Of a DNA stretch of 64,000 nucleotides, positions 1 through 23,056 are shown piece by piece (the first letter of the stretch is position 1; each line of letters starts with the position of its first letter). This stretch comes from an uncultured Hormoscilla sp. (GTDB taxonomy: Bacteria; Cyanobacteriota; Cyanobacteriia; Cyanobacteriales; Desertifilaceae): the NCBI GenBank assembly GCA_963921275.4, contig OZ001293.3:1664001-1728000 (forward strand), given 5' to 3'. Both the position numbers and the translations under genes were made by a program. Below the pieces are notes generated by a model, which was not told the DNA's origin, ran no database searches, and saw only the letters and a program-made list of their open reading frames with translations.

Positions 1-62
1 CACTCTGGGGTAAAATTGCAACAATTTTTGGTCAGGATTGACGAGAATTTAAGATTATTAAA

Positions 63-2711: not shown

Positions 2712-4337
2712 GACGTATGCATTGCTACTTACAACTTCACAATTGACGTTACCGTGAGGGCGTCAGCATATCCTATCCATTACAGATAGGCGTTAGCTTC
2801 TCCACGAAATCTCTCCCAGATACAACCTGCCTAATGAAAGCAGATGTTGCGCCTGTGGTGGCTACTCAACCTATCGACCGGCGGTTGAGAGTATGTACCT
2901 GGTTTACTTCGTTCCTCTAGATGATTGGTCGTAGTTTTAGGTGGGCTCTCTATGCCGGGTTTTATTGTCAGTGCTTATTGGTCGGAGTCAAAACCGCCAA
3001 TGACCGATATCCTTTCCCTTTTGGACCAGCGTTTCAGCCTTTTCGCTGGTTCCAAGTGACGACACTTATGAGCCTTCACTTTCGTTCATCATGACTACTT
3101 GCTTGACGATGACCGGCTTAGGCTGCTAGTCAGGGCGCCTTTCCTACCCGCTTCACAGATTGATGCCATCGCTACTGTGGGGTAAGTGCTGTCACGAGAG
3201 CACCTGGAGGGGTGGGCTTTCACCACCATCATCTAAAAGTTGTCAGGGCTAATGGAACCCTGCTAATGGTCCCCCACCGGTGTCCCTCTGTTGGTTCACC
3301 GGTAGTTTACACTAAACGAATCGCACTCGACTATCTGTGGCCATAAGGTGGGCATGGCCCACCCGACAACAGTTATTTCAGCTGAAAGCTAGTACCCCGG
3401 TAGCATCCTTGAAAAGAAGTCAGTTTGGTACTAGTGTACTGCTCCAGTCTCTGCACTAGCAAAGGCTTGTATTCCAAGGTATTGAGCCATTTATAGGAGA
3501 AATGACCTGGACGATACCTAATCCTTTTATGAATATACTTGTCAACGGGAACTCCGTCAACCCCTGAGATGCTTTGCTGGTGGTATCCATTGAGCATGAT
3601 GTACTCGACTTCCACTCCTGGGGACAGGGTGACATTCCAATGTACCGGTTCATAGGAGGACAGAGCCAGAATAATAGGTTTCTCTTGACGCTGCACCTTC
3701 ACCTCCACCAGTCCCGTGGGATGATATCCAGCACTATGGTCCGATCGCGCCTCATATACACTAATTACATGTAGCTCTTTAGAACCCATAGTTCGGGCAA
3801 AATAGGCCGAAAAATCTCCTGAACCACCGTCACCGCAGGCGACTATGGGAGTTTCTGTTGCAGCTTGCTGCTGTTGCAGGATCGGCTTTAACCAATACCA
3901 ACCACCGACACCCACAGCAGCGATCAAAGCCGCACCCACCCCGATCGGGATAATATTTTTCAGGTTGCGGAAACCCTCAGAGTTTGTGAAGCGCTCCAGG
4001 TTATTCTTGAGCGCGTCACCTGTTTCTTGGAATAAATTATTGTTGCCATCCAGAGAGGCTAACAAGGCCAAACTTTCCGGCGCTTCCAGTAGACTTTGCA
4101 CATCCGGACCCAGACCTACATAAAGATTTCTGCTGTGCCGGTCTAAAAGGAGCCAGTATTGGTCTGCTGCGCCCAGGTTATAGTCTTGCACTGAGGGACT
4201 GACTTGGGGGTGTTGCAGGAAAACCTGCCAGGCCACACCGTTACCGGTGCCGATATTTTCCCCATCATTGTACATGACTTGGTTGAGTTGGGGTTCCCAG
4301 TGCCAAGCTACCCAACGACTATTAGCTTGATAGCCTA

Positions 4338-5349
4338 ACTCAAGTTGCGACCTATAAAAATTGGATACAAAAAGCTATGATAAAGAGAATTATTTTCAAC
4401 TCTAATCCCTTAGATGTAACAGCATGAATTGACTTGGGAAACAAATTGGTGATTCGACTAAAACAGGTTTCAACTTGTTTTCTTGTTACTTTTTGTATAT
4501 ATTCAAAACAAGAATATTCTTTTCTTTTTGAGTTCTTTTTTCGCAAAGGTTTTAACATTAAACTTGACGACTCTTTTAGTAAATCCTCTAATTGATAATC
4601 ATTATAAGCTTTATCTCCATAAACTATTGAATTTGATGGTAAGTCAAAGCCAAAAGATTGCAAAACTTTAACATCATTATAACTACCAGGATCTAGATAA
4701 AATTCTATTGGCTTTCCATTTTTGTTTACCAACATATGAACTCTTAATCCATAAAAATAACGTTTTTTACTGGCAATATACCCTCGATATTCTTCCTTGT
4801 TATAAATTTGGCATCTATCAATCCTAATATTATCACATACTGGCACCGGGAAACTATCAAGAATATATTCTTGACCCGGATTGAGCTCTTTAAATGTTTG
4901 AGCTATAACTTGAAAGAAAAACATCCAAATTGGTTCGTCAATATTGTGTAATCGACGATTGAACCTACTTTTACTTAACAGATTTTTTATATACTTGTGT
5001 TGGACCATAAATTGACAAGAGCGATCGTGGTGTCCTCCGAAAAAATATGCAGCAACTAATCCGACTGTCATCACTTCAGCATTGTTCATTTTTACTTGTG
5101 GATCTTCTTTTATATTTAACGCTTTTAGTAGCTCGTCACAAAGAACAAAAATTGTTGTAATCATATCTTCCATCATCTACATCCCCCAGCAATTAACTAT
5201 TATTTTAGTACATTATAACCTATAAACAGCCAACCCGCCGTCTAGCACAAAAAAAATATAATTTTGTATCAAAAGCTACGAAATATCCCAAATATCTGTA
5301 AAGTCTAAGTGGGTAATTCATATTTTTTTTAATAGGTCGCAACTTAGGT
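4338..5349 (-). mobile_element. IS982-family element, intact
   Basis: TIRs ACTCAAGTTGCGACCTAT / ATAGGTCGCAACTTAGGT; 7-bp TSD TAGCCTA. Confidence 0.93.
4352..5176 (-). CDS. IS982-family transposase
   Basis: 274 aa with IDSFPVPVC-like, YGLRVH, GDKAY and RKQVETCFS motifs. Confidence 0.92.
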   Translation of the reverse strand: MMEDMITTIFVLCDELLKALNIKEDPQVKMNNAEVMTVGLVAAYFFGGHHDRSCQFMVQHKYIKNLLSKSRFNRRLHNIDEPIWMFFFQVIAQTFKELNPGQEYILDSFPVPVCDNIRIDRCQIYNKEEYRGYIASKKRYFYGLRVHMLVNKNGKPIEFYLDPGSYNDVKVLQSFGFDLPSNSIVYGDKAYNDYQLEDLLKESSSLMLKPLRKKNSKRKEYSCFEYIQKVTRKQVETCFSRITNLFPKSIHAVTSKGLELKIILFIIAFCIQFL

Positions 5350-5692
5350 TAGCCTAGAGTTCTTTCCAGTCGGGGATGGGCCGTAGCGTTTAAGCGTTCA
5401 ACTAAATTGGACATCTCGCTTCCAGGCTGTTTATGGTTTTGTCTATGATAGCTTCTTTTGCCCTGAGTCGGGCAGAGGCGATCGTAGGTTGGGTTCCCCA
5501 CGTTACCCAACCTGAGGTTGCTGCCGCTTGGGAGCACCATCACCCTAAAGGATTCTGTTGACGAATGGGGGCGAAGCCCCCATTGTACCCCAAGGAGAGC
5601 CAATCAGCAGGTGTTGAGTTACGATAGACAGGAAAACTCACGCGGAGACATGGGAGAGTGAGCTATACAAACCCATACCGCCCCAATTACTT

Positions 5693-6110
5693 ATGACCCT
5701 TCATCCCTCACTACAATGGATTGTGCCCCCAGAAACAGTCGCAGTGGCGAAAGCATCGTTTCCCAAAGGGAACATATACATGACAATGCACAAACAATTA
5801 GGAGAAATATAAACAGATAACGACTTTGAGTCTCTTGAGCCCAGATGTGGACAATCGGCAATGTCACAGAGCCAAGTTAGCGCTAATTACAATTATGCAG
5901 GAAGCCGTTGGTCGTTCCAGATAGACAAGCCGCTGATGCCGTGGGTTCAATGTATTGATTGGAAGTATGCTTTAGGCCTAGAATTAACTGGGGAAGGTTT
6001 TGACTATACAGTGTTGACGGAATTTCGCGAGGGTCTGATAGCGAAAAAACAAGAAAATCAACTACTAGATTTAATGCTGACAAAATTGAGAGAGCAATTT
6101 TGGCTCCGTT
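5693..6110 (+). pseudogene. IS1182-family transposase N-terminal fragment
   Basis: VPPETVAVAKASFPKGN and IDWKYALGLELTGEGFDYTVLTEFR motifs, with stops and frameshifts. Confidence 0.7.
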
Positions 6111-6290
6111 CTCGAGTTGGAGCTGCTGACCAGGGGGTAATCCCCGACCTTCGCCAACAGAATCCTAAAGGGTGGGGCTACATGAACAAAGCAATTGTCT
6201 CAGCGAGCGCAGCGTGGCAACCTTCCGGCGCGGGCTAAATTTATCGAGAAGATCGCGTATTATCTCGTATTATTTCGTTGCCAGGTTCTA

Positions 6291-6410
6291 CCTGGCAATG
6301 GACGCGGGAGGCAGAGCCTCCAGTTGCTGGCACAGGAGGCTCTGCCTCGAGTACTGGCGTTCCCAGGCAGAGCCTGGCAATGTACGCGGGAGGCAGAGCC
6401 TCCAGTTGCT
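6291..6410. repeat. REP-like direct/inverted repeat cluster
   Basis: CCTGGCAATG(G/T)ACGCGGGAGGCAGAGCCTCCAGTTGCT occurs twice, plus AGGCTCTGCCT/AGGCAGAGCCT inverted copies. Confidence 0.7.
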
Positions 6411-6428
6411 AGATCGTCGGGCCATTAA

Positions 6429-8826
6429 ATTAAACTAAGCCAGTCCGTCACCGGACCGACTCGTCTTCAAAACCGGACATGAGACTTTCGCCTCATCCTG
6501 CTCCTCGGTCACGCCACCCTTGTCATGGGTACGGCTACTGCCATCGCTGGCAGTCTTTTTGTCGTGGCAGTGTTTGTGTAGCAACTGTAGGTTGTCATAC
6601 CGGTCCTTACCTCCTAGTGAAAGGGGCATGATATGGTCAACTTCCCATTTGTCACTATCCATAAACGTTAGTCCGCACTGTTGGCATTTTCCCTTTTGCT
6701 GCTTGAGTAGCGTTGCTACCCTTTTACTCAGTTCGGGGCTTTTGCCTAATCTTGTGCTCCAATATGTGAGGTTCCCGTCGTATGGGCTTGCGGTCCCTTT
6801 CACTTTTACGTGTCTGATTATCTCAGTTTCGGAGTGTTTGCGTATCTTCATATCACCCTCTTTTGTCTTGCTTCGGAATCGCCATTTAGCATCCTGGTTT
6901 ACAGACCAGTATTTATAGGTTATCCAGTTACTTAACTTGTTAGGGTGCCTCCTTTTGGCCCATTGCCATAGGATGTTTTATAGGTAGTTGTCCATATCGC
7001 TGTAAGTTTCCTTGCTTACCACTGTCCTAAAGTAGTTTGACCATCCCCTTATTATCGGGTTTAGCCTGCTTATTAGGGCCGCTTGTGGTGCTGTTATATG
7101 GCTAGTTACCATTTCTGATAACCGTTCTTTATGCTTCCCTATGGACTTATTACTGGGTTTGATTAGGGTTTTGAATCCTAGGGGTGTTCCGTTTGTTGAT
7201 TTGCCGGTTCTGTATTTTCCCTCTTTATATTGCCTTATATTGAATCCTAGGAAGTCGAATCCCGGGTTTTCTCCATTTAGCCTGTGGGCTATCTTTGTCT
7301 TTTCGGCCTTCAACTCAAGCCCTATTCTTCTTAGCCACTCTGCCACCACTGTTTGCGCTCTGTCTATCATCTCCCTGTCTTCATGCATGATCACAAAGTC
7401 GTCTGCGTATCTGACTACCGTCAGCTTTTGCTTTTCCCTTTGTGTCTTTGCTAATTCCATTACTGCTTCCTCTAACCCCTGTAGGGCTATATTGGCTAGC
7501 AGTGGGGATATGACACCCCCTTGTGGCGTTCCTGCCTCAGTTGTGTGCCATATCTTCTTGTCAATCACCCCGGCTTTTAACCATGCCCGTACTTGTTTAC
7601 GGATTGGTGACGTAGTATTTAATTTTTCGACTAGCGCTTTGTGGTCTATCCTGTCGAAACATTTCGCAATATCTGCATCTAATACCCATTTGGGTTTCTG
7701 TTTAATGCTGCTGAATATTGCCGCAATTGCATCGTGGCATCCCCGACCCGGTCTGAATCCGTATGAGTTCCCCTCCATATATGCTTCCCATTCGGGTTCG
7801 AGCGCAATCTTGAGGAGCCCTTGATTCGCGCGGTCGTGCATCGTGGGTATTCCTAAAGGACGTTTTTCTTCTCTCCCTGGCTTAGGAATCCATACACGAC
7901 GTGTAGGCTTAGCCTTGTTTGAGATTTCAATCTGTCCTACCAGTTCTCGGCGTTGCTTTGGGGTTAGTGATTTCACACCATCCACACCGGCTGTCTTCTT
8001 TCCCTGGTTATCTTGTGTAACCCGTCGTACCGCTAGACATTTGGCAGCCCGGGAGCTTACCAGTAACCTTTGGAGCCTGCGAACTTTTTGCTTATTGCCT
8101 TCTTGTGCCGCTCTGTAAATTCGTTTTTGCAACTTAAAGACTACCCGTTCCAGCCGAGGCCAGGGGATATCCTTCCATTCATTCATCGATTTTGACATCG
8201 TGCTCATGACGTATGTATTGCTACTTACAACTTTACAATTGACGTTACCGTGAGGGCGTCAGCATATCCCATCCATTACAGAAAGGCGTTAGCTTCTCCG
8301 CGAAATCTTTCCCAGATATAACCTGCCGAATGTAAGCAGATGTTGCGCCTTTGGTGGCTGCTCAACCTATCGACCGGTGGTTGAGAGTATGTACCTGGTT
8401 TACTTCGTTCCTCTAGATGATTGGTCGTAGTTTTAGGTGGATTCCTTATGCCGGGTTTATTGTCGGTGCTTATTGGTCGGAAAAGGAACCGCCAATGACC
8501 ATTATCCTTTCCCTTTTGGGCCAGCGTGTTTAGCCTTATTACGCTGGTTTGTCGTAACGACACTGTAAATCTTTGCTTTCGCTCACCGTGACTACTTGCA
8601 CGCTGCGCGAAAAATCGGCGATGACCGGTTTAGGCTACCAGCCAGGGCGCCTTTCGTACCCGCTTCACGGATTGATGCCATCGCTACCGTGGGGTAAGTG
8701 CTGTCACTCCTGCACCTGGAGGGGTGGGCTTTCACCACCATCATCTAAAAGTTATCAAGGCTAATGGAGCCTTGCCAGTGGTCCCCCTTCGGTTATCACC
8801 GGTGGTTTACACTGAACGAGTCGCAC
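6429..8826 (-). mobile_element. Group II intron, paralog of 57-3326
   Basis: GTGCGA 5' end at 8826; DV/DVI ending GCTTAGTTTAAT at 6429; colinear with the first intron. Confidence 0.9.
6435..8207 (-). pseudogene. ltrA: Group II intron RT/maturase/HNH with a single premature stop
   Basis: ORFs 6978-8207 and 6435-6851 are in the same frame. TAA at 6978-6980 replaces the TGG seen in copy 1. YADD is intact. Confidence 0.9.
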
Positions 8827-8926
8827 TAAAACGCCGACATTTTAACAACTCAAAGAGCGACTATAATCGATCTGATATCCTCTGGCCCCTCTCTAGGCGC
8901 GAAGCGCCTGGGAAGCACGCTTCGTG

Positions 8927-8978
8927 CTTACTACGAACCTAATTCTGTTGTCCTTACTACGAACCTAATTCTGTTGTC
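8927..8978. repeat. 26-nt tandem duplication
   Basis: CTTACTACGAACCTAATTCTGTTGTC x2. Confidence 0.8.
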
Positions 8979-9003
8979 ACGTCTATGAATACTTCAACTT
9001 CAC

Positions 9004-10374
9004 GGCTCTTCTCAATCTAGTATGCTAAAATAGGTCTTAAATGGGGGTTAATGCGTCCGGTCAACGGGAGCTTCTGAAAACCGGAAAACATTGCCGGACT
9101 TGACATGTAGAGTTGTGGTATGATCTAGCTTTATAGAAAAACAGGGAGAATTTATAAGATGCCGCGTTCAAATCTAAAAATACTAACAACATTTTTAAGG
9201 CTTCCAGGGGTGAAAGTTGTCTGGTATACCGAGGTGAATTTAACAGAAGTGATAATGACGATAGAGGCAGAAAAACAAGAAGCAATTTGCCCTAGATGTA
9301 ACCAGAAAAGTTGGCATCAAAATCATAATTACTTAATTAATGATTTACCCTGGGGAGAAAAGAAGGTTTTTATCCAAATCAACCGCCAGTGCGATCATTG
9401 TTCAAAACCCTTTAGCGAAGAATTGTCATATGTAGAAGCTCGGCTATACAAAGAGATTGTCTGAACAAGTGGTTCGAGAAGTATTAAATGGTGATATTCG
9501 TTTGGGTAGCAACCCGGTATAGATTAAAAGAATCCGATGTTCAACAAATGCTGTCGGGAAAGTTAAAAATTGAACCACTGAACTAAAAAAGTTAGGTATC
9601 ATTGCCTTGGTAAAAGGTAAAGGAAATTATGCAGCAGTTTTAGCCGTGTCTCCTGGGAGCGCTATTCGCACTACCCAGGAGACGTGGACATTGATAATAG
9701 CAAACTTTTGGAAATCGTCCCGTCTCGACGACAAGAAGATTTGCGAGAAGTCTTGCTATCATGATGATGTCTTAAATGGTATAGAAGAAGTAAGTATCGA
9801 CCTGTGGAAACCGTATAAAAGTTTAGTGACAGAGTTGATGCCGAATGCTGAAGTTGTCGCCGAGCGTTTTCACGTAACAGGTAAATGAAGAACTAGATGC
9901 TGAAAGAAAAAAGATCAAAAATGCCACTAATAAAATTAAAAATAAGCGTCAAGGCGATCTGATCAGGGTTGAACAAAAGTAAAGTTGCTAAAAAATGAGA
10001 AAGATTTGAACAATGAACAAAAAAATTGAGAGAAATTCAAGAAAAAATCCTTAGGGGAAATGCACCGCATCAAGGAACAGCTACGGAATATTTACGAGAG
10101 ATCTGAAAAAGAGGCAAATCCTATCTTACTTTTAATTGATTGGCTCGGCCAAAGAGTATTTTTGTGTGTGAAGACAATTATTCGATGGTTTGGAGAAGTG
10201 GTTGGTTATTTTGAATCGGGGACAACTCAAGGAACTGTAGAAGGAATAAATAACCGTCTCAAGTTAATTAAGCGTCAGGGATATGGGTTTAAAAATTTGG
10301 ATAATTTTCGCTTGCGTAGTCTACTTCGCTGGTGCTTTTAGCATCAATGCCCGCATACTAAATTGAGAAGAGCC
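9004..10374 (+). mobile_element. ISL3-family element, degraded transposase
   Basis: TIRs GGCTCTTCTCAATCTAGTATGC / GCATACTAAATTGAGAAGAGCC. Fragments CPRC, VSIDLWKPY and EGINNRLKLIKRQGYGF, with many frameshifts. Confidence 0.88.
9644..9687. repeat. Core-conserved hairpin element (GGGAGCGCTATTCGCACTACCC core)
   Basis: Inverted arms around the shared core; inserted in the ISL3 transposase. Confidence 0.75.
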
Positions 10375-10478
10375 ATTATATTGAACGCAATCGCATTCCC
10401 GAAGAGTTGGTGCATCAGGCGGTTAAAGCGGCGCTTAAATAGCTACGATCGCTCGTTCACTCGTTCCCTGGGGTCGCC

Positions 10479-11129
10479 CATTGGTGACAACTTAAGGTTA
10501 AAATATAGCTATCAAGCCAGCTCTAGAGGAGGTGTCTGATCGTGAGTCGCCCTCGCAAAAACAACCCAGATCATGCTCGCCTCCGATGTGCTCTGCGCAG
10601 AGCACATCGTCACAACATGCCCGCTCCCAGTAGCAAAGCTATTGAAGCTCACCTGAGTAATCTGTTGACCCCTTTGGTGAACAATCAATTGGGCTCGGGA
10701 TCGCCAATTGGGGTTACGTGCGAGGATTTTGGGACTGCCACTGATGGTGGCGGCGGTATTAACCCTGCTGTGGCGCCAGTTACCAACTGGCTTATCTCTG
10801 GACGGAGTCGCTCAATGGCGTCAAGCTGCCTCTCTGGGCAACCTGGCGGTTCGGCAGCTGTGTTGCTAGACCTGGCGGATGAAGTCGCTGATTGTCTAGA
10901 ATTACCCACAGAGCGTATTTCCTTATAAATGATATTTCAAGGGTTTTATCATTTCACAGTCGCCAAGACCAGGGGCAATAATCAGTCTCTGGTAGAGTAT
11001 TTCTGCGACCCCAAAAATAATGCTCTGGGCATTGTCAAAGTTTTGCCCAAAACCAAGGGAAAGCAAGGGTTATACCTCTCTCCTTTCCCCGACTTGACTT
11101 TGGCGGAATCTTCTTAAGTTGTCATCCCG
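10479..11129 (+). mobile_element. Internally deleted IS4-family-like element
   Basis: Inverted ends GGTGACAACTTAAG / CTTAAGTTGTCATCC; N- and C-terminal transposase-like remnants. Confidence 0.6.
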
Positions 11130-11520
11130 CTCAAAGGCAATAGCCCAGAGGAATTCGGACAGCAGTTGCGACTAGCTGCGGTAATATACTGGTAAGCAAT
11201 TCAAAATTATTTCTTCAAAATTCAAAATATGGCTGCACGCTATCGCTACGCTGCGCGAAGGGGAAAGTCTTTGAGAACAAGGAGCGAGCGCGGATCGGCC
11301 TATGCAATTTAAATGCGCGACTGCGGAGTAACGGGACAACGACGATCTGAAACGGGAGTTAGAACGTGCATGAACGTCCAGCAATTAACCACCTTTAATT
11401 ATTGATGCAGGCTTGCTAAACTATTACGAAAGGTTGTGAACAAGGAAGATAACTTGCTACAATATTTCAAACACTGGTAACTGGTAACCGATCGCTGATA
11501 ACTGACAATAGGCGCTCGCC

Positions 11521-12162
11521 ATGAATAAATTAAAGAAAAAAATTCCGAGAGATACCTGGGTTAAAGCTAGTTGGAAGGAATACATCGAAGTGCTTGAAGA
11601 TGAGGCCGATCGCAAAGGAAAAGGTTACTATTACAACCGAGAACTGAGAATTGAAATGTCACCAGTAGGTAATGACCATGCCAATGACCATTCATTTATT
11701 ACCATTGCGATCGGCTTATTAACTATTACTAAAGGCATTAATCTCAATGTCAAAGATAACTGCACGTACCGCAAAACAGGGATTAAAGAAGCTCAACCTG
11801 ATGTATCCTGTTATATAGGCGAAAACGCCGATGTCGTGCCTTGGGGAACTTCTATTATCGATCTAGACAGATATCCACCGCCGACCTTAGTGATAGAAGT
11901 GGCTAACACCTCACTTGTTGATGATAAAGGAAAAAAGCGCCAGCTTTATCAAGAACTTCAAGTTGCTGAATACTGGATCGTTGACGTGGTAAACGTGCAA
12001 GTTATTGCTTTTGCTATTGCTGATGGCGATAGCAAGGAAATTAGAGAGTCAAGAGTATTGCCCGGATTAGAAATTTTTTTGCTAAATGAAGCCTTTCGCA
12101 TGAGTCGAAGGATGAGTCAAAGTCAAGTTTTAAATTGGTTATTCACCCAATTGCAACAATAG
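11521..12162 (+). CDS. Uma2 (DUF820) family endonuclease-like protein
   Basis: QPDVS, PPTLVIEVANTS and EYWIVD motifs. Confidence 0.9.
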   Translation: MNKLKKKIPRDTWVKASWKEYIEVLEDEADRKGKGYYYNRELRIEMSPVGNDHANDHSFITIAIGLLTITKGINLNVKDNCTYRKTGIKEAQPDVSCYIGENADVVPWGTSIIDLDRYPPPTLVIEVANTSLVDDKGKKRQLYQELQVAEYWIVDVVNVQVIAFAIADGDSKEIRESRVLPGLEIFLLNEAFRMSRRMSQSQVLNWLFTQLQQ

Positions 12163-12202
12163 CACGATCTGGTCAGGTGGGCATCGCCCACCTGACCCAT
12201 TA

Positions 12203-12315
12203 TATAGGGAACCTAAATGAGTTGTGTAACGGGTGATTGCTGAAATTTAGGCACCGCAAGGGTTTCAGCGCTGTCACCCCCATAATAGTTGCACAAATGA
12301 TTTAGACTTACTATA
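12203..12315. mobile_element. MITE with TA ends
   Basis: Imperfect TIRs TATAGGGAACCTAAATGAGTTGTGTAAC / GTTGCACAAATGATTTAGACTTACTATA. Confidence 0.65.
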
Positions 12316-12549
12316 GTAGTTCAAAGCTATCATAAACTGTCCCCATATCCTCGAAGTTACGTGAGCTGCCTTCGTCAGAAAAGGAGAGATTTGAGTGCGA
12401 TAGGGCGAATAATTAGTAGAGATCGGCTATGCCCAGAAACCATGTTTCTTGAAAAAACATGGTTTCTCAATTTGCAAAAAATATTTGTAATTGTTATAGT
12501 AAGATAAGTAAAAGATGTCAAAACTAACATCTTGTACCTTTACCGATAC

Positions 12550-12644
12550 AACCCCGGGATCAAGACTCAAGTCCTGACAGAAAAAGTTTTTAGACCAATA
12601 CAACCCCGGGCTTAAGACTCAAGTCCTGACAGAAAAAGTTTTTA
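12550..12644. repeat. ~52-nt tandem duplication
   Basis: AACCCCGGG...AAGACTCAAGTCCTGACAGAAAAAGTTTTTAG x2. Confidence 0.75.
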
Positions 12645-12690
12645 GTCGGTATAAGACCGACTTTAGTTATTAGCCGGGGGTTTGAACCCT

Positions 12691-12734
12691 CCGTGTATCG
12701 TGGGTAGTGCGAATAGCGCTCCCACGATACACGG
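12691..12734. repeat. Core-conserved hairpin element, reverse orientation
   Basis: CCGTGTATCGT-GGGTAGTGCGAATAGCGCTCCC-ACGATACACGG. Confidence 0.8.
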
Positions 12735-12852
12735 AAGGCGGGCCTCCTGCGAAGATGCTATAATAATTCTCAATGAACAATTCTCAATGAACGATTCTCA
12801 CGCGATCGAAATCATGTAGGATAGAAAAAAGTAGGCTAGCTCACAGCAGAGA

Positions 12853-13914
12853 ATGAACAGAACCTTAATCCCCGTTATCCTCGCCGGTGGCAAAGGAGAA
12901 CGATTTTGGCCTCTCAGCCGCAAAGATCGACCCAAACAGTTTCTCAGTCTGGATGGCAGCGGAAAGAGTCTGCTGCAAGAGACCGCAGACCGACTATTAA
13001 ACATCGCCGGGGGCTGGGAAGGCTTGTGGGTATGTACTTCCAGGCAACTAGCAGACGGGGTACTCCAACAACTACCTCAATTACCCCAGAGTAACTTGCT
13101 AGCGGAACCGGAAGAACGGGATACGGCACTAGCAGTGGCTTGGACGACTTTGAAGATCGCCCAGCGTGAAGGCCAAGAACAGGCGATCGGGTTTTTCCCG
13201 GCGGACCACTGGATCGCAGACCGAGAAGCTTTTGTGCAAACCATCAATGCCGCAACTCAGCTTGCATCGGACCAAGCAGCCATTGTCACCCTGGGAGTAA
13301 AGCCAGCATATCCGGCCACGGGCTACGGGTATATCGAACAAGGTCAACAGACAGGCACTTTTGCCGGGTTGCCTGTATATAAGGTAAAGCAGTTTACCGA
13401 AAAGCCAGATGAAAAGACAGCCGCCGAGTTTATTGCCACAGGTCGTTTTAGCTGGAATAGTGGTATGTTTATCTTCCGGGCTGGGGTGCTGCTAGAGGAG
13501 ATGAGCAAACATGCTCCTGCGATCGTCACCTTGCTGCGATCGCGTGGGGAAGCCGCTTACAGTCAGCTACCCAAAATTTCCATCGACTATGCTTTAATGG
13601 AGAAGACCGATCTAGCTTACGTGCTGCCAGCAGATTTTGGCTGGGATGACTTAGGAGACTGGAATGCCCTATCACGCTTGCTGCAAAGGGACAAGCCCAA
13701 CTTGGAGTTAACCGAGCATGTGGGCATGGATACCAAGGGAGCAATTCTCTACGACACCGATGCCGAGGGAGTTATTGTCACCATTGGCATGTCCGATGTA
13801 GTAGTAGTGCGGGATGGTAAGGTCACCCTGCTAGTGAAAAAAGACCGCACCCAGGAGATCAAAAAGGTACTGGCAATGCTGAAAAATGACCCGAAATTTG
13901 AGCATCTGCTGTAA
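12853..13914 (+). CDS. manC: Mannose-1-phosphate guanylyltransferase
   Basis: LAGGKGERFWPLSR, PADH, WNSGMF, SIDYALMEK and WDDLGDW motifs. Confidence 0.92.
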   Translation: MNRTLIPVILAGGKGERFWPLSRKDRPKQFLSLDGSGKSLLQETADRLLNIAGGWEGLWVCTSRQLADGVLQQLPQLPQSNLLAEPEERDTALAVAWTTLKIAQREGQEQAIGFFPADHWIADREAFVQTINAATQLASDQAAIVTLGVKPAYPATGYGYIEQGQQTGTFAGLPVYKVKQFTEKPDEKTAAEFIATGRFSWNSGMFIFRAGVLLEEMSKHAPAIVTLLRSRGEAAYSQLPKISIDYALMEKTDLAYVLPADFGWDDLGDWNALSRLLQRDKPNLELTEHVGMDTKGAILYDTDAEGVIVTIGMSDVVVVRDGKVTLLVKKDRTQEIKKVLAMLKNDPKFEHLL

Positions 13915-13951: not shown

Positions 13952-15073
13952 ATGCTTTCATTAACAAAGACAAGTTCGCGACAGCGAGAAATACTAGAGG
14001 TACTGTTCCGGAATGGCTGGGACTACATCGAAGGACTGATGAAAGGTAGTAAAGGTGGCGAACCCAGACTGCCAACACCTGCCGTCCTACGAAATATTCT
14101 GGTAGAATTGGGTCCAGTATATGTCAAGCTGGGGCAACTGCTGAGTACCCTGAGGTATCTCCCGGGAGCGCTAAAAGCACTACCCGGGAGATACCTCCCT
14201 GACATTCTGCCCTCAGCCTACATAGAAGCATTATCCTCGCTACAAGCGAAAGTGCCGCCAGTAGCATGGTCCCAGATAGAAGTAATGTTGCGGCAAGAGT
14301 TACCCGGACCCCTGCACGAGACATTTTCTGCCATTAATAATCAACCAGTTGCCGTAGGTTCGATCGGTCAAGTGCATCGGGCAACATTAGCAGATGGTCG
14401 GGAAGTGGCCCTGAAAATTCAGCTTCAATGTCTCCTGTCGGAGTCCGGTCAGTCAGTAAATTTGGATCCCTTGGAAAACGACTACGATCGGATGCTGCGC
14501 AAGTATTATAATCTCAGCCTGTCGGAGATATATTTCAGTGAAGTATTCTACGAGTTCTTGGAAATTTCGCGCAAGAATAAAATTAAATTGCCAGGGAATA
14601 TGGGTTTGTACGCTAAAGCCCTAGCCAATTTAGAAGGAGTAGCCCGTAGTTTCAATTCGGAGGTAAATTTACTGGATGAAATAAAGCCATTGATGACAGA
14701 TTTATTTCGGCGTCAGCTGCTGGGAGATAAGCCGATCGAAACCCTACCCTATTGCAAACGGCGTTGGACCTGAAGAGTTTATCCTTGCAATCTCCGCGCA
14801 TGGTAGAGTTACTCCTAGACCGAATAACTTCGGAAACCCTGAAGTGGAATTTAACCATCAAAGATCTAGATCCGTTACGTCGGAGTATAGATGATTCGGC
14901 AAACAGGCTCTCCTTTAGTATTGTAGTAGGTTCCTTGAGGGGCAGCAATTATTTCTAGTAATGCCCAGACGCCGCAAATGTCGGTGGTGAGTGACGTGTT
15001 GTTTGCAGCGGCTAGTATTTTGGGGTTGTGGTTGGCAATCAGTATTCTGCGATCGGGGAGATTACGGTCTTAA
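13952..15073 (+). pseudogene. ABC1/AarF/UbiB kinase, internally deleted and frameshifted
   Basis: LGPVYVKLGQLLST and GSIGQVHRA...VALKIQ are followed directly by the C-terminal region, so the kinase core is missing. Frameshifts near 14750 and 14935. Confidence 0.85.
14152..14197. repeat. Core-conserved hairpin element, in-frame within the ABC1 kinase gene
   Basis: GAGGTATCTCCCGGG-AGCGCTAAAAGCACTA-CCCGGGAGATACCTC; expands the conserved STRPD motif by 15 codons. Confidence 0.82.
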
Positions 15074-15151: not shown

Positions 15152-16675
15152 ATGACTAGCAACAAGTCAAAATTATCGGTCAGAGTTCAAGGGGATATAC
15201 GCGAACGGTTAAGAACATTCCAAGCAGAGCATCAGCTCAAGTCCTTGTCCGGTGCGATCGGAGTAATTCTGGAAAATTACTTTGAAACGATCTCATCGGT
15301 CCCATCCGAAGTAGAACAGGCAGATGTTCTGCCAGCCAGCGACAGCATGACCAATATTCTACTGAAGCGGATAGAAAAGCTGGAAACAAGATTAGTCGAA
15401 ACAGAAAAACACAGCAACGAGCTGGAAGTAAGATTAGTCGAAACAGAAAAACACAGCAACGAGCTGGAAGTAAGATTAGCAGTGGCGGAAGCAGAACTGG
15501 GAAACTATCGTCGGACTGCCAGCACACAAGGACTTAAGTCTCTGAAACCGATACAAGCATCAACAAAACCACACAACTCTATATATGGGCGAGGCGAAGC
15601 TGCCTCTATATATCCAGGATGGGAACTTTCTGCCAATGTCTCCTACGTATTCAGTAGAATTCAGACGCTGAACACGGATGAAGCCAGGGCGGCCTTTGCG
15701 GATAAGTGGATAGGTTTGTGCGCCCAAAGCATTGATACAGCTTGGGTTGTATGTTACCAACTCCTGAGCATCATCAAGGAAAAACAGATGTATAAAATTC
15801 CGCAATGGATGGAAGGGAACAAGACCTACGATTCATTCAGCGACTACTTCGAACAGCGATTCAAGCAGCCCTTCGAGAAGTGGTTGCAACTGGAGCGTAC
15901 TTACAAGTTTGTGGTCGAAACTTGTCCGGAACTGCTAGAGGGACTATTACATCTAGAGTCCAGCCCTGATTTTTCCAGAACGGTGGAAGCTCAAAACGAC
16001 AGTGGTAATGGGGTGATTCCCAGTAAGACAAAGCGCAAGACTCGAAGCCCGCGCAGCCAGAAGCTTCCACAGCCAGAGGCACAGCCAGAAGCACAGCCAG
16101 AACAGCCCCTTGATAGCGTAGAAACCGCTTCAATGTCTCCTGGGAGCGCTAAAAGCACTACCCAGGAGACATTGCCGACACCTGAAGCCGCAAATCAGGT
16201 TGAGAACGACAGTGGTCATGGGGTGATTCCCAGTAAGACAAAGCGCAAGACTCGAAGCCGGCCCAGCCAGAAGCTTCCACAGCCAGAGGCACAGCCAGAA
16301 GCACAGCCAGAACAGCCCCTTGATAGCGTAGAAACCGCTTCAATGTCTCCTGGGAGCGCTAAAAGCACTACCCAGGAGACATTGCCGACACCTGAAGCCG
16401 CAAATCAGGTTGAGAAAGACTCTGATGTACAAGTCACGCCCGATTTTTCCGGAACGGTAGCCCAGAAGCTAGAAACTCAAGAGTCTAGCACTTCCGATCC
16501 CCTATCTGAAATAATGACGACCAGAGAAATATCGGAATTACTAAACTGGCACCGTGATAAATTAGAAGGCCGCAAAAAACGTGGGAATTTGCCGATACAA
16601 GAGGGTGGTTACGTCATCGACTGCATTGGCAAGGAAGGGCGGAAGCTGATTTGGACTGTTAAGCGCCTGAAATAA
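15152..16675 (+). CDS. Hypothetical protein: RHH-like N-terminus, coiled coil, internal repeats, possible C-terminal HTH
   Basis: 507-aa ORF with an upstream GGAGG. 42-nt repeat (RLVETEKHSNELEV x2) and a 210-nt tandem duplication at ~15996-16415. Confidence 0.75.
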   Translation: MTSNKSKLSVRVQGDIRERLRTFQAEHQLKSLSGAIGVILENYFETISSVPSEVEQADVLPASDSMTNILLKRIEKLETRLVETEKHSNELEVRLVETEKHSNELEVRLAVAEAELGNYRRTASTQGLKSLKPIQASTKPHNSIYGRGEAASIYPGWELSANVSYVFSRIQTLNTDEARAAFADKWIGLCAQSIDTAWVVCYQLLSIIKEKQMYKIPQWMEGNKTYDSFSDYFEQRFKQPFEKWLQLERTYKFVVETCPELLEGLLHLESSPDFSRTVEAQNDSGNGVIPSKTKRKTRSPRSQKLPQPEAQPEAQPEQPLDSVETASMSPGSAKSTTQETLPTPEAANQVENDSGHGVIPSKTKRKTRSRPSQKLPQPEAQPEAQPEQPLDSVETASMSPGSAKSTTQETLPTPEAANQVEKDSDVQVTPDFSGTVAQKLETQESSTSDPLSEIMTTREISELLNWHRDKLEGRKKRGNLPIQEGGYVIDCIGKEGRKLIWTVKRLK

Positions 16676-16769
16676 TGGTTACAAGAGTTCGCATACTTCT
16701 GGGGGCTTTGGGAACCAGGAGTACTACCAATGATCGCCAAGCTCCCATCACCCTTTTGGGTAGAGTTCC

Positions 16770-19527
16770 GTGCAAATAGGCGAGAGTCAATGTAGCATCC
16801 AGATGTCACTAGCTCGCACCAAGCTGAAGCTCAGGCAAATACGCAGCGAGCTAATCGAGAAAACCTTGAGGAAATTACCAGGAGTTGTACCAGTGAAAAA
16901 CTTAGGAAAGGAAAAAGTGGGAGTGTCCAAGCCAACCTGGATGTCACAACAACAGTGGCGAGATTTACTGGCATCGTATGACGATCAGCCGCAATGCCAG
17001 TACACAGACAAAACTGCCTCTGAAGCCAAGCTGGTTGTTGACCATATCGTGCCTCGATCGCAAGGAGGCAAGAACGAAGTCAGAAACTACCAGTTCCTGT
17101 GCGAAGATCAAAATCTTCAGAAAGGGGTAAAGCCGGACAGGTATTGGTCGCAGGAGTTATACTACGACAAAGATCACGATCCAAACAACTTCCGCTATGC
17201 TCAGTATTTCCTGGCTTATCTGAAAATTTTGACTCAGGCAGAACACTTCCAACGTCCCTGGTCGCAAATCAACCGAGTAGTCTATCTGCTGGCGTGGATC
17301 ACTGGAGCAGGTAAGACAATGGCTATTCATGCAATTTGCTTTGCGCTCAACCAAATTTTGAAAAGGGATAAAGGAGTTGCTTACCCCAGAGTCGATCGGA
17401 TTTTAGTCTTGGTGAAAGAGCAAGCTCTACGGGACCAACTAGCGAATGAACTGGAAAAGGATGTAGTTGACTATGGAATCTGCAAGATTCCCCCAAAGGT
17501 GGGAGTAGTAGAAAGCAGTGATAAGTTGGAAAATGATTGGTGGCTTGAACAATATGATATAGTTGTTGCCTGTTTACAACAGGATGGGAACGTAAGAATG
17601 GTATTCCTCGCGATAATATTGAGCATATTTTAGGCAAGTTTGCCGTTGTCTTCTTCGATGAACCCCATTACGCTGTAGAGCAGGTGGCTCAGTTAGCAGA
17701 GCAAGGGACCAGAAGCCTTTGTTTTGGGCTGACCAGCACGCCAATCAATGCCAAAGGTGAGGTTTTAGCGTCTTATGTACTGTTTTCGCTCTGTGGTTTG
17801 CAGGAAGCTTATGAGTACCAGCAAAACCTTAAATACCTGTCTTCATCGGAAGCATCAATTATCGAATCAAAGATGGTTGACTATGTGGATGAGGTTGATG
17901 CACGAGAGCATTTTTGTGGCCAGCGTATTGAAATAGAGGGAAGTCCGGACACACCTGACTATAACACGCAGCTCGAACCAGCAAAAACTGTAGCTGAGAA
18001 AATTGTGTCTTATGTGGTTGAAGCTGACCGCTTGTGTAAAAAGGTGTTTTCTGGAGAAATCACTCCTAAACCTGCATCGCACAGAAATGCCAGTGAAGTT
18101 ATACCTGATTTAATTTACCCCATGCACGCCATGATTGCTGTGAGGAGCAAGCATGACGCGGAGGTCTTAGCAAAGCATCTAAATGATAATGTTTTTGAAA
18201 GCAACCCTATGAATATCCACCAGAACAAGGCTTTAGAGTCAAGGTTGTTTTCAGTGCTGGAGTGGATGAGGACGGCAAACCAGTCCCAGGGTACAAACTG
18301 GATACAGAGCATCCCTGGCTAAAGTGCTGGAAAACCAAGAACTTCAAAATGACTGGGCAGGGTTGGGAGCTTCCGAAAGACTGCGCTCGCTTTCTCATTG
18401 TTGTTGGCATGGCCCGCGAGGGAATCAATAACCCGTTCTGTGGAGTAATCGGATTAGGCAATAGAACCGAATCAATCATTGAGGTAATTCAGCGGTTGAT
18501 TGGTCGGCAAATCCGGTCATACCAAGAAACACTCAGAGTTCCTCCAGCACAACTGGACAGTATCAAGATCTGGATGCACAGAGCTTGGGATTATCCCAAG
18601 GCTGGAGATGCACCGGACTATGCTACTACTAAATGTATAAAGGATAGTCTCCACTTCTACGAACACATGGATGAGTGGTTGACTGGTATAACTACATTGG
18701 AAGACTTAATAGAAAAAGGTAAGGAACTAGATCCGGAAACTGAAGTAACAGATCGAGGAACCTTAACAATCGAGGATAAGTTAGACATAGCATATCATGT
18801 AGGCGAGCATCAACTCAAGGATGAAGAAGTTCCTGAAGATGACATTATTGATAATTTGTGCGGTCGCAATAATAAGAAAAGAGAACTTGGCAAGCAGTGG
18901 ATTAACCTGGTTCAGAACGATCCGGATCTGGCTAAGTCTGAACTTAACCAAAAGGTAGTGCTTCGCAAGCTGCATGTGATTGAGTACGAAAGACCGAAAA
19001 TAAATCCTAGTATAACGGATTTGCGTTGGTTCTATGAAGTGCATAATCCTGGCAGTCTTCCACTGCTTGAGACTCTGGAAAACTCGGCAACCGATAGCAC
19101 AACAAAGGAAGCACTGCGTTCTAATATGAATTTTACCTACGAGCAATACATGGCGAAGTTCCATTCATTTGCTGATTTGCCAAAAGTTACGGACTTTGAT
19201 AAGATTCGCACAAAGTTAGTGAGTCAACTGTACAGTCAGCTACGTTTCAACAGTCCTGGTAGTTTCATTGAGGGAGAAGTTAAGGAGATAAAAACTGAGG
19301 CTTGGAAGCAGATTGGATATGCTGTAAAAACTGTACTGGGGTTAAAGAAAGCAGAAAAAGGTAGCGAACACGATACGCCACAATACCACGCTGTCCTGTC
19401 AGATCCCGGTATTGTCAGAAATATTCTAGGGTATGCACGTCAGAAACTATTGGAACAGTTTGCTCGACCTCCTATAGCTAGAAGCTTGCAAATCTCTGAT
19501 GCTGCTCCAGATCCGGAAGTTGATTAA
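16770..19527 (+). pseudogene. HNH endonuclease + SF2 (ResIII-like, DExH) helicase fusion split by two 1-nt frameshifts (real or sequencing error)
   Basis: HNH VDHIVPRSQGG...NYQFLC...N; Walker A TGAGKT; DEPH at 17657-17668; TSTP; MAREGIN; QRLIGRQIR. Frames join near 17583 and 18207. Confidence 0.8.
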
Positions 19528-19723
19528 AGAAGAATAAATACCCTGAGTCCTACCACGGGGGTTAGGGTTTGGTATCCCGTTTGCTCGCGATCGCCTGATC
19601 GGATGGTGTTTCCCTTCCGCTACCACGGGGAGTGGTAGCATAGTGTAAGGGGCGATCGCCACCCCGCCCGAACCCGTGCATGATCCGGCTACTCCGCAAC
19701 ATTGCCTGCCCTATAACTGCTCT

Positions 19724-19755
19724 AACTCCGAACTCCGAACTCCGAACTCCGAACT
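19724..19755. repeat. Heptamer tandem repeat (AACTCCG)n
   Basis: Four or more direct copies; cyanobacterial STRR-like. Confidence 0.85.
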
Positions 19756-19894
19756 TCATTGGGTGTGGTCTTGCGCCCGTTGGCAACCGTTCACCGTTTT
19801 CTGTGAAGCGCATCCCGAAGCACGAGCGCCTAAGCAGCGCATTCCGAAGCACGAGCGCTCTTTGCGAGTGCGGAGAGGAGAGCATGCGGAGAGG

Positions 19895-19968
19895 AGCAAG
19901 TGATGTACTTCTGGCCATAATTGAGGATGCTCTAAATATGGGTCCATACCCGGAAATGGAGATAGCAT
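19895..19968 (-). pseudogene. Truncated DUF4058 paralog, 5' end only
   Basis: MLSPFPGMDPYLEHPQLWPEVHHLL is nearly identical to the start of 23067-23867 and then runs into small repeats. Confidence 0.75.
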
Positions 19969-20830: not shown

Positions 20831-21478
20831 TCACTTAGACCACCCCAAATTTTCGATCGCCTGTTCAATGTCAACTTCTAAGGCCCTAAAAGCAGACAAA
20901 GCCCGCAGGCGTGTAAAATCATTAATCAGTTGAGCTACTCGATGAACTTTTTCGTTGACATTGAATTTCTTCAGCCGTTTGGGTCCCAGTTCGCTGGCTT
21001 GGCGCAAAACTGTGTATAGAATGTTTTTGGGATCGGATAGTTCTTCAACTTTAGCGAGGTCTGGCAATTTTAATGCCTGTCGTCCGCCCGGATTACCAGA
21101 TGCTCTTCGGATTGCTTTTTCGTCAAATAATAACCAAGCTTCTTGCATCCGTACCGGAATAACACAAACTGCGGGGACGGACAGTGATTTTTCATCTGAC
21201 TCTATCGCTTTTCTAATTTCATCCACACGCTTTTGTCGCGGTTCTTTTTCGGCATCTCTATGCACGAATAATAGATCGCAAGGGTAAAGTTCAAGGCTCT
21301 TTTTGATGCGATCGGGCAACTTTTTGGGCGGTTTAGATAACCTTCCTAAATATGCCCATTCAGACTGGATAGCACAGTTAACAACAATATGTTCTCGCAA
21401 TAACCATGTCAGAACATATTGTAACGCTTTGTCTGAACTACCATCAGACAGTAAAGTGTAGCGAAGTTCTTCTTTCAT
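20831..21478 (-). CDS. DUF4276-like (TOPRIM-like) protein
   Basis: SDGSSD, VHRDAE, PVRMQEAWLL and SAFRAL motifs; immediately downstream of the ATPase. Confidence 0.75.
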   Translation of the reverse strand: MKEELRYTLLSDGSSDKALQYVLTWLLREHIVVNCAIQSEWAYLGRLSKPPKKLPDRIKKSLELYPCDLLFVHRDAEKEPRQKRVDEIRKAIESDEKSLSVPAVCVIPVRMQEAWLLFDEKAIRRASGNPGGRQALKLPDLAKVEELSDPKNILYTVLRQASELGPKRLKKFNVNEKVHRVAQLINDFTRLRALSAFRALEVDIEQAIENLGWSK

Positions 21479-21487
21479 AGCAAGTCA

Positions 21488-23056
21488 CTAGGAAAACCGG
21501 GAATCAACGGTTGCAGGTCTTTTCTGTCCCGCAACTCGGCGTTTCTTGGACGATGTATCCGGCGATCGCTGGTAGCTTGCTGCCTCTCCATTTTCATCAG
21601 ATTCTGATTCTTGCGGCATAACTGGATTCAGATAAGCAAGTAGTTTACCTTTAGAAACAACACTAACTCTTTCAGGGGCTTTAACTCGCCAAGTATCAGG
21701 CAAACAGCTAAAACACACCCGCTTAAACCGCTGGTTTGAACTAACCGTTTCCTTCAACTCAGCCACCAAAAGGCTATCATCCCTAACCTGACTGACAACT
21801 CCTGGAGAGTGAGTGTTGACGATTACTTGACGAAGGGGATTGTCAAAACCAATCTCTTCTTCCACATCAGTTGCAATGTCTTGAAGTAGTTCGATCATCT
21901 TCGGGATGCGTTCGGGATGAATGCCGTTTTCCGGTTCTTCTAAGCACAAAACACCCTGTGCTTCTGAATCGAGTTCCAGCACTGCTAATGCCAGAAATCG
22001 CATGGTGCCATCCGATAATGCCCGCGCCGGATGGGATGTCCCGTCTCGATCGGTGACCATTAAGGTGAGGAGTTCGCGGCGATCGTCGCGGTCAATCCAT
22101 ACTTCATCTACATCCTCAATCAATTCTGCCAGACGATTAGCAACTTGAGCATAAACTCGTGCTTCTGCTGCCTCTACATTCTCTGATTGCCCATTAATTT
22201 GGTGATTTTTCGTATGACGTGCTAAATGATAGAGTGTTGAAGCTAGATGAGATCCGTCTGTCCCTAATTTTGTAGGAGCAATAAATTCGCTACTGTGACG
22301 CAAAGATGAAGGTTCGAGCTGAAGTAGGCGCCAGGATTGCATTTCCCGCCGCGCTAACAGCGCCGTAGGACTTTCGGCAGCATTCGTTACAGAAAGTACA
22401 GTCCGGGGCAGATTGACTGCTGACCTAGATAGAGCTCTGCCACTGCTACCACCGTCTTGATGGAGCTTAATGACTCTCTCTGTCCCCTCACCTCCAGTGG
22501 AAATAAAAGGGGCTCCTCTCCGTTCACCGTTTACTACGGACTTACGCCATGTTTTAGCTTTGTGAGGAAACAGTAAGTGCTTGGCAGCTTCACCGATGTT
22601 GATGTGAACTAATTCTTCTTTCAAGAGTTCCAGCGTTCCTAGGGACCGGAGACTATCATCTGCTTTGTAGGCTAGGATAACAGAGTATCTGAGAAAGGTA
22701 ATAGTAGCTTTTGCCTTTTGTCCGAGATCGTCTACTCCCTCATAAGGCACGATCATTTCTGCTTCAAAGGACATTTGCTCAGCATATCGATCGCCGACGC
22801 GGAGGAACAAGCTTCGGACATCACCGGTTTTACCGCTTTCATCCCGCACGGATAAAGCAGCTTCGATGAGAGACCGATCGGCCAAGGCACTCAAAAACCT
22901 AATAGCATCAAACAGATTAGATTTTCCCACCCCATTTGCCCCCGCTACACAGGTGAATGGTCCAAAGCGGACATCAACATCGACGAGGTTCTTAAAACCT
23001 GAAACTTTTAACCTGGTTAGCATAATCTTACTCTTGCGATTACATTTTTTCGCCAT
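21488..23056 (-). CDS. AAA_21/ABC-type ATPase
   Basis: GANGVGKS, LSDGT, LEEPENGIHP and NTHSP motifs. Confidence 0.9.
   Translation of the reverse strand: MAKKCNRKSKIMLTRLKVSGFKNLVDVDVRFGPFTCVAGANGVGKSNLFDAIRFLSALADRSLIEAALSVRDESGKTGDVRSLFLRVGDRYAEQMSFEAEMIVPYEGVDDLGQKAKATITFLRYSVILAYKADDSLRSLGTLELLKEELVHINIGEAAKHLLFPHKAKTWRKSVVNGERRGAPFISTGGEGTERVIKLHQDGGSSGRALSRSAVNLPRTVLSVTNAAESPTALLARREMQSWRLLQLEPSSLRHSSEFIAPTKLGTDGSHLASTLYHLARHTKNHQINGQSENVEAAEARVYAQVANRLAELIEDVDEVWIDRDDRRELLTLMVTDRDGTSHPARALSDGTMRFLALAVLELDSEAQGVLCLEEPENGIHPERIPKMIELLQDIATDVEEEIGFDNPLRQVIVNTHSPGVVSQVRDDSLLVAELKETVSSNQRFKRVCFSCLPDTWRVKAPERVSVVSKGKLLAYLNPVMPQESESDENGEAASYQRSPDTSSKKRRVAGQKRPATVDSRFS

Follow-up and report, generated by a model that had tools for sequence, protein, structure and literature searches.

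The window, a stretch of 64,000 nt on contig OZ001293.3 of an uncultured Hormoscilla sp., carries two neighbouring genes on the forward strand, here called A and B. Gene B (16893-19527, +) encodes a fusion of an HNH nuclease, an SF2 ATPase and a helical tail that is spread over three frames, and gene A encodes its partner protein. The features of the locus are as follows.

15152..16675 (+): gene A, an open frame of 507 aa, the partner protein
15584..15930 (+): conserved core of gene A, ~130 aa, YGRGEA..LNTDEARAAFADKW..SFSDYFEQRF..W..LE
15995..16420 (+): 210-bp tandem duplication in the gene A linker, each copy with a ~40-bp repeat dispersed throughout the genome
16779..16860 (+): frameshifted leftover of the N-terminal RHH domain carried by intact cyanobacterial B homologues
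16893..17583 (+): gene B, piece 1, with likely GTG start, HNH, Q-type motif FRYAQ and Walker A; its 3' limit is a 1-nt deletion
17584..18204 (+): gene B, piece 2, with DEPH, motif III TSTP and the onset of the second RecA-like domain; its 3' limit is the second 1-nt deletion
18205..19527 (+): gene B, piece 3, with motifs V and VI, then a C-terminal domain of ~320 aa
20831..23056 (-): HEC-01A/B candidate defence pair (AAA_21 ATPase and DUF4276; PADLOC E 7e-96 and 7e-28; Pfam), 1.3 kb downstream

ORF calling placed gene B in three frames (16770-17633, 17585-18322 and 18208-19527). Alignment with the L007 copy (97.7% identical) revealed that the window is one base short at ~17583 and again at ~18204-18206, the coding part being otherwise free of indels, in agreement with the original prediction that three ORFs are joined through two 1-nt shifts. 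The predicted length of about 900 aa was corrected: the fused frame stands, but the probable start is the GTG at 16893, with AGGAG at 16880, which gives a product of 878 aa. All of the predicted motifs were located, namely the HNH signature VDHIVP..N..K (17037-17126), TGAGKT (17301), DEPH (17657), TSTP (17732), motif V MAREGIN (18409) and motif VI QRLIGRQIR (18490). In Pfam, piece 1 matched HNH (5e-7) and ResIII (2e-5); the C-terminal domain is specific to the gene B family and matches no known family. Among 75 aligned homologues, the Walker A GK, the DE and the Q..R of motif VI are invariant, and the HNH residues D/H/N/N are conserved at 90% or more. The N-terminal RHH of the homologues corresponds to PF01402 in 4/14.

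The Logan contigs of three sequencing runs (X1, X2 and X4) equal the window with no gap over either break, and a run from a different organism (X5) has the extra base at both sites. Since three runs carry both deletions and gene B is uninterrupted in relatives (878-955 aa), the gene B of the window is most likely a true pseudogene, and its two breaks are most likely real deletions and not assembly errors. A functional copy, in which both breaks would be sequencing errors or programmed frameshifts, is highly improbable. The second deletion does sit within a short C run, and a single study, which may be the source of the assembly itself, supplied all three matching runs, with the library type not on record; however, the first deletion lies outside any homopolymer, no slippery heptamer was seen at either break, contigs of three samples at depths of 16-84 agree with the window, and the locus has decayed differently in G001, G002 and G004. 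The dN/dS ratio against the sister copy was 0.53, compared with 0.15 for sdhA (manC was left out of the comparison), although short distances inflate this ratio. The gene pair of the window is most likely an inactivated, decayed copy of an unnamed two-gene module whose intact form occurs in other cyanobacteria; a working two-gene system in the window is not supported, as gene B is most likely a pseudogene.

Gene A begins with an RHH-like segment, followed by a coiled coil, the conserved helical core, the duplicated low-complexity linker and a winged-HTH-like end. The open frame of 507 aa was as predicted, but its length includes the 210-bp duplication and a further tandem duplication of 42 bp, and relatives are 364-470 aa long. 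In most relatives an additional HTH-type domain follows at the C terminus; the window copy lacks it. The core is constant across clades, and the DNA-binding-type termini are swapped between them. RHH_1 matched 2 of 13 members of the partner family, weakly (best E 0.0015), and no family in Pfam, PHROG, NCBIfam or PADLOC matched the core. In a structure model of a distant homologue (pLDDT 80) the core is all-helical. This model had no Foldseek match in the PDB, its best VIA match was to generic helical repeats (Z 7.5), and it resembles three uncharacterised viral proteins (E 1e-4 to 4e-4, TM about 0.2). The comparison with DUF3102 gave a feature score of 0.80 and a Foldseek E of 1.2, and Atlas hits were all below 0.9. 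DNA binding by A is putative, predicted from the weak HTH/RHH matches and the helices of the model. A ParB-like tail was not supported: hhalign against 10 cyanobacterial ParB proteins gave probabilities below 3, and the model matched Spo0J at rank 34 (Z 4.9, rmsd 4.5, 89 aligned).

Linkage of the two genes was examined in other genomes. A partner gene with the gene A core adjoins B in 17 of the 18 distinct loci with room for one, and the reading frames of A and B often overlap; L011-L013, which match the HNH alone, were left out of all counts. The partner profile detected seven non-cyanobacterial loci, none of them used in building it, at E 7e-31 to 4e-25, compared with E 2.1 for the best unrelated one among 3,421 frames. 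The identities of the A core and of B correlated across 17 pairs (rho 0.62, Mantel p 0.0005), with no correction for shared ancestry. On this comparative evidence A and B are a conserved, co-inherited module, which bears out the two-gene system of the original prediction. No description of the gene pair was found in the literature searched, as judged mostly on titles and abstract openings.

The distribution of the pair is patchy (2/61 relatives and 3/401 genomes of the phylum, its own genome included). G001 yielded no B, and its A has lost exactly the core (a single case); in G005 a different three-gene island occupies the post-AarF site of the module. In the genus, the module has long resided at its site and is decaying there. 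The lack of GCGATCGC (HIP1), from which horizontal acquisition had been read, does not show a recent acquisition. The 4.4 kb do lack it (0 seen, 3.0 expected), but so do 10.8% of 5,000 stretches of 4,376 nt drawn at random from the chromosome, and its absence was rejected as a weak sign of transfer. Bases 1-13,535 of the window are likewise devoid of GCGATCGC, and the GC and GC3 of the locus are near those of neighbouring genes.

The motor of B resembles that of type I restriction enzymes. Profile-profile alignment (hhalign) with EcoAI-type HsdR gave a probability of 97.8 (E 8e-13) over 318 columns covering motifs I-VI, the best SF2 match in the PDB was 3h1t, an R subunit of a type I enzyme (E 5.5e-7), and EcoAI/type IB HsdR (NF046051; 3h1t) has the same order of nuclease, SF2 motor and helical tail. 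In contrast, when compared with 14 aligned EcoAI-type sequences, the nuclease, which is an HNH in B, and the C-terminal domain of B scored probabilities of only 0.2 and 0.5, respectively. The likeness of B to HsdR is thus confined to the motor, which counts against a type I-like reading. Type I systems have HsdM/HsdS, and the pair has instead an unrelated helical partner. Type III systems share with the pair the two genes, a presumed DNA-binding partner and the ResIII match on the first RecA-like domain. However, the type III Mod is an N6-adenine methyltransferase and the partner here has no methyltransferase motif or family; the nuclease of Res is a C-terminal PD-(D/E)XK, unlike the N-terminal HNH of B. 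The predicted mismatch with type I and type III architectures is supported, with no hsdM/hsdS or Mod and with a nuclease and C-terminal domain that are not those of HsdR. As predicted, no adjacent methyltransferase was recognised among the ORFs neighbouring the pair in the window, and a crude regular expression found the motif in none of 22 loci, 7 of which had at least 1.2 kb on both sides.

PADLOC-DB 2.0 returned only HNH-level matches for B (best 6e-7, PtuB, 4/15 members) and none for 6 partners, in line with the expectation of an undescribed system. SauUSI, Hna, Nhi and DdmD are single-chain defence effectors with a nuclease fused to a helicase-type ATPase; they differ from B in nuclease fold or position and show single-motif matches at most, and B has a near-obligate conserved partner. 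Pairs of an HNH-SF2 protein with a partner also occur in actinomycetes, in Saccharomonospora phage PIS 136 (JX006077) and on Streptomyces plasmids NZ_CP108279, NZ_CP100398 and NZ_CP108716. They share the B architecture and a coupled downstream partner, whose HTH-like tail matches the phage-type tail of the gene A family in 2/4 (1e-20 to 1e-23). However, their HNH-SF2 proteins have 614-719 aa, versus 810-955 aa in the B family, with motif-level similarity only (E 1e-10 to 3e-13), and the partner core is unmatched (E 0.01 at best). By these profile comparisons, the actinomycete pairs checked are distant sister clades, likewise uncharacterised. TtrA of Streptomyces linear replicons is, like B, an SF2 helicase of mobile elements, and a TtrA-like gene lies near the sister-clade pair on NZ_CP100398; TtrA was rejected as the closest relative, as that gene scored only E 0.07 against the B profile. 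TtrA carries helicase-associated repeats (10.1101/2024.11.13.623437). BpuC combines DEAD/Helicase_C and HNH in a single chain but differs from B in having its HNH at the C terminus and its gene within a cas operon (10.1101/2025.09.30.679098).

Of the 13 non-cyanobacterial loci, 7 are early or replication regions of temperate phages, in which primase-helicase, RecE/RecT, resolvase, CI/Cro and antiterminator genes, mostly co-oriented, lie beside the pair. In L030 the pair comes immediately after CI-Cro and one more early gene, a place usually occupied by initiators in the lambdoid gene order. Phage loci L022 and L023 each encode their own primase-helicase, and the replicative helicase there is therefore not B. 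A phage replication module had been named as an outcome that would speak against a defence system, and this is partly the case, as the loci outside cyanobacteria show. Given these phage neighbours, defence is the likely but putative role of the pair.

These loci point to the main alternative, which is less likely than the explanation favoured below: an optional phage DNA-processing cassette. Here the partner would tag a position on the DNA of the phage itself, where the HNH-SF2 protein would nick, remodel or resolve intermediates of replication or recombination; in cyanobacteria the pair would be cargo left stranded or would serve its mobile element. The matches of the motor to UvsW, XPB and Hef-type helicases (E 1e-5 to 1e-2) and the sister-clade pair in the cultured phage PIS 136 agree with such a cassette. 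On the other hand, no full-length member of the gene B family was present among 50,697 isolated phage records, which indicates that the pair is not core phage machinery, and PLSDB plasmids and INPHARED phages contained no full-length homologue of the P0011 and L025 query proteins. Intact cyanobacterial pairs, in islands and CAST remnants where phage genes were not recognised, are under purifying selection (dN/dS 0.15-0.26), so the module is maintained in a setting other than a phage. Their gene order and partner ends have been remodelled.

In the tree, built by a quick method, two separately placed cyanobacterial clades of the module occur, both in islands; the clade of the window was placed via L005, L034 and P0007-P0010, without L007. 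L005 and L017, from separately placed clades, were examined as possible type V-K CAST cargo, and both adjoin merR and a cas12k gene that is truncated in each (NCBIfam 2e-79 and 4e-46). The window's own copy has no tnsB/tnsC/tniQ-type neighbours among the window ORFs.

The explanation we favour, to which we give somewhat less than an even chance, is that the intact pair works as a nuclease-motor of type I-like design without a methylase, which the partner loads and which acts against foreign DNA. A is a predicted DNA-binding protein that would dock B, probably through its core. Its variable ends would supply the DNA address, the role that HsdM/S play for HsdR, and B would travel along DNA on ATP, cutting foreign or competing DNA. 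Self would be spared because the host lacks or conceals the address or trigger structure, and not through methylation. The module may be phage-born, with an early role in the lytic programme against host or rival DNA. In cyanobacteria it would have been acquired for defence on two or more occasions, entering islands and type V-K CAST cargo. The phage early-gene position counts against the favoured explanation, as it suits lytic DNA processing and not defence by a lysogen. A bolder version is less likely: an undescribed class of methylase-free restriction machines made of an HsdR-type HNH motor and an adaptor. The conserved core of the adaptor would dock the motor, and its interchangeable HTH/RHH ends would redirect the machine to other DNA targets. 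Such a machine would be a weapon of phages that was domesticated on two occasions as CRISPR-transposon cargo of cyanobacteria, and its sister clades would be those on the phages and plasmids of actinomycetes.

If the favoured explanation is true, a restriction-like motor would separate self from non-self without methylation by means of a small swappable targeting subunit, a new DNA-targeting design and a phage module turned host defence. If the phage cassette is true, the pair would be an unrecognised accessory of temperate-phage replication common to over a hundred sequence clusters. The intact cyanobacterial pairs make the module directly testable under either reading, and the window copy serves only as a pointer.

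The tight coupling of the genes also recalls toxin-antitoxin or abortive infection systems, with B as a toxic nuclease-motor freed by loss or displacement of A, its autoregulating inhibitor. The RHH/HTH-type ends on A and the RHH on cyanobacterial B are typical of autoregulated operons, and A precedes B in one clade. This arrangement is nevertheless improbable: in most clades the partner lies downstream of B, and G002 has an open 887-aa B beside an A split by a group II intron, a combination in which unrestrained B would kill the cell, barring a restoration of A by splicing or a silent B. Still less probable is a type IV-like, modification-dependent restriction, in which the C-terminal domain of B or A itself would read a modified base. 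No methyltransferase motif was found, and weak profile matches were obtained to McrA (6ghc, E 0.1) and to the 953-aa helicase 7clg (E 7e-5), which we take to be SauUSI; however, both matches span single motifs only, and neither A nor B contains SRA, PUA, EVE or another reader family in Pfam, NCBIfam or Atlas.

Scans of viral contigs with query A1 yielded 2 near-identical loci, and A4 and A5 yielded none. Other neighbours of the pair are DUF3800 at L017, Schlafen-AlbA at L008, merR and tRNA-Pro at L029, and tRNA-Val at L028.

Gene B, encoding the HNH-SF2 ATPase-helical-tail fusion (16893-19527), was found in three frames with every motif named in the original prediction. Relative to L007, a Hormoscilla MAG contig that is the nearest titled record (97.7% identity over gene B), the window is short of two single bases, the first at ~17583 and the second at ~18204-18206, in agreement with the two 1-nt shifts that had been proposed. 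Contigs from three runs of one study repeated both deletions with zero gaps, and these runs, whose library type is not recorded, may be the assembly's own source; both missing bases were present in a run from another organism. The first deletion lies outside any homopolymer. It is very improbable that the break is an artefact, and gene B, preceded by a frameshifted RHH remnant, is read from its sequence as a genuine pseudogene, the intact form of which would be an 878-aa protein with a putative GTG start at 16893. Broken copies of B, with an internal deletion or stops, also occur in Prochloron and Paraprochloron (L008:8112-10328 and L009:60-1181), and the L004 copy carries one stop.

The sequence GCGATCGC occurs 34 times in the window, and the host is accordingly a cyanobacterium. 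The reported absence of HIP1 from the 4.4-kb module was correct, but it is a weak sign of horizontal acquisition, as 10.8% of 5,000 random stretches of equal length also lacked it.

Using the C-terminal piece of B as query, 14 full-length proteins of 811-955 aa were obtained among 5,463 candidates, and their profile matched 193 clusters with E values no higher than 1e-30 in 1.84 billion representatives; among the 150 clusters listed, many were 810-900 aa and some were fragments. The HNH D/H/N/N residues were kept in at least 90% of 75 aligned members, and the Walker A GK, the DE and the motif VI Q..R were invariant. The family is sporadic, being detected in 2 of 61 relatives and, with two candidates scored per genome, in 3 of 401 genomes of the phylum, its own included. 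Searches of isolated phages and PLSDB plasmids gave no full-length copy.

Gene A, the partner gene, is an open frame at 15152-16675. Its residues 130-275 retrieved 14 proteins, the window's own included, among 101 candidates, and several lay on contigs of the same size as those with B homologues. After merging (L014/15, L030/31, L003/7 and L006/10/16/20), 25 distinct loci contained B, of which seven (L005, L009, L024, L030, L033, L035 and L037) had no room on the relevant side. A clear partner adjoined B in 17 of the 18 loci with room, so that the two genes are indeed linked in other genomes; the remaining locus, L014, has a divergent partner (E 1.4). Because the partner profile was built from cyanobacterial partners, the telling matches are L021, L022, L023, L025, L026, L032 and L036 (E 7e-31 to 4e-25). 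In the window's clade the partner lies upstream of B; elsewhere it is downstream and usually overlaps the stop of B. Its helical core of ~130 aa is constant across clades and its ends differ. Partners of the window's clade have RHH, coiled-coil and HTH-type domains; in the second cyanobacterial clade the end is short and winged-HTH-like, and the phage-like loci have another HTH-like tail. Identities of the core and B were correlated (rho 0.62, 17 pairs, 5 of them joined solely by equal-sized contigs, relatedness not removed). No family in Pfam, PHROG, NCBIfam or PADLOC covered the core; the structure predicted for a distant partner was all-helical, and this model had no clear relative among solved structures. 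A dispersed repeat of ~40 bp, with 161 genome matches of at least 30 nt, lies in frame within gene A at 16133-16172 and 16343-16382.

The motor of B aligned with EcoAI-type HsdR (probability 97.8), whereas its nuclease and tail had no match there (probability 0.2 and 0.5). As anticipated, no methyltransferase motif was detected in any of 22 loci, the flanks of which were often short, and the pair belongs to neither type I nor type III R-M. It also lies outside every PADLOC 2.0 system, and no description was found in the literature searched; DefenseFinder or paper supplements could hold one. By analogy, the pair may function like a nuclease-motor of the HsdR type whose adaptor is a separate protein, and we tentatively favor a methylase-free type I-like machine. 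We infer that A would bind DNA via its variable ends and dock B through its core, and that B would translocate on DNA and cut; phages would turn the pair on host or rival DNA, and cyanobacteria would retain it as a protective defence. A toxin-antitoxin pair appears improbable, and modification-dependent restriction still more so.

Phage early or replication genes were found in 7 of the 13 non-cyanobacterial loci:

L022, L023: primase-helicase beside the pair (in L023, antiterminator and HNH as well)
L024, L035: RecE/RecT
L030: CI/Cro
L014: Gam-like protein and resolvase
L026: GcrA-like

At L021, neither of the two neighbours tested matched, and the other five loci were too short or outside the neighbour test. 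This placement among replication genes favors the main rival, a phage DNA-processing cassette, which we nonetheless consider rather unlikely, since two of the phage loci have a replicative helicase of their own and the pair is under purifying selection in phage-free cyanobacterial islands. Intact pairs gave dN/dS values of 0.15-0.26.

In a quick tree, the cyanobacterial members formed two well-supported clades placed apart. One locus of each clade (L005 and L017) adjoins a MerR gene and a truncated cas12k; L029 adjoins MerR and tRNA-Pro, and L028 adjoins tRNA-Val. V-K CASTs are described as marked by the MerR-type CvkR (PMC9938897). Defence systems are described as abundant in Tn7-like cargo (PMC8649781), in the main text of which the term 'HNH' is absent.

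In the window, the module follows an AarF kinase gene and lies 1.3 kb from HEC-01A/B. Its site is decaying within the genus. B is broken in the window, and A is split in G002 by a group II intron (L003:12440-14770; RT/maturase-HNH, itself split) in the middle of the partner core. In G001, A is without the core and B was not found; G004 has other sequence in place of the whole stretch, and in G003 a contig break falls at the site. The post-AarF site of G005 holds a different small island:

L052:3852-5573: pentapeptide-repeat-like gene, nucleotidyltransferase-like gene and 96-aa gene

The nucleotidyltransferase-like gene gave a weak PADLOC PDC-S09 match (1e-4), and the three genes are possibly another unnamed defence island.

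Four annotated HNH-SF2 and partner examples, from phage PIS 136 and three Streptomyces plasmids, share the layout of the A/B pair, but their proteins are 614-719 aa and resemble B at motif level only. An HTH-like partner tail is common to two of the four, and the partner core matched none of them. These pairs are sister clades outside the B family. On a subtelomeric Streptomyces plasmid (NZ_CP100398, L071:2869-8404), a TtrA-like helicase and a SLATT protein with a nucleotidyltransferase precede such a sister-clade pair. TtrA was rejected as a relative of B, having nothing in common with it past the SF2 motifs.

The other neighbours in the window were as follows:

9061-10928: ISL3-like transposase fragments upstream of the module, identified by eye
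13952-15072: AarF/ABC1 kinase gene, upstream
19756-19968: fragment of a DUF4058 gene shortly after B
20831-23056, minus strand: AAA_21 ATPase and DUF4276 pair (PADLOC HEC-01A 7e-96, HEC-01B 7e-28)

The kinase gene is disrupted in the window by deletions and frameshifts, is split in G002, and is intact in G001 and G005. The AAA_21 and DUF4276 pair is also present in G002 and G004, and comparison with G002 gave dN/dS values of 0.63 and 1.19 from few changes. Further dispersed repeats lie at 19650-19815.
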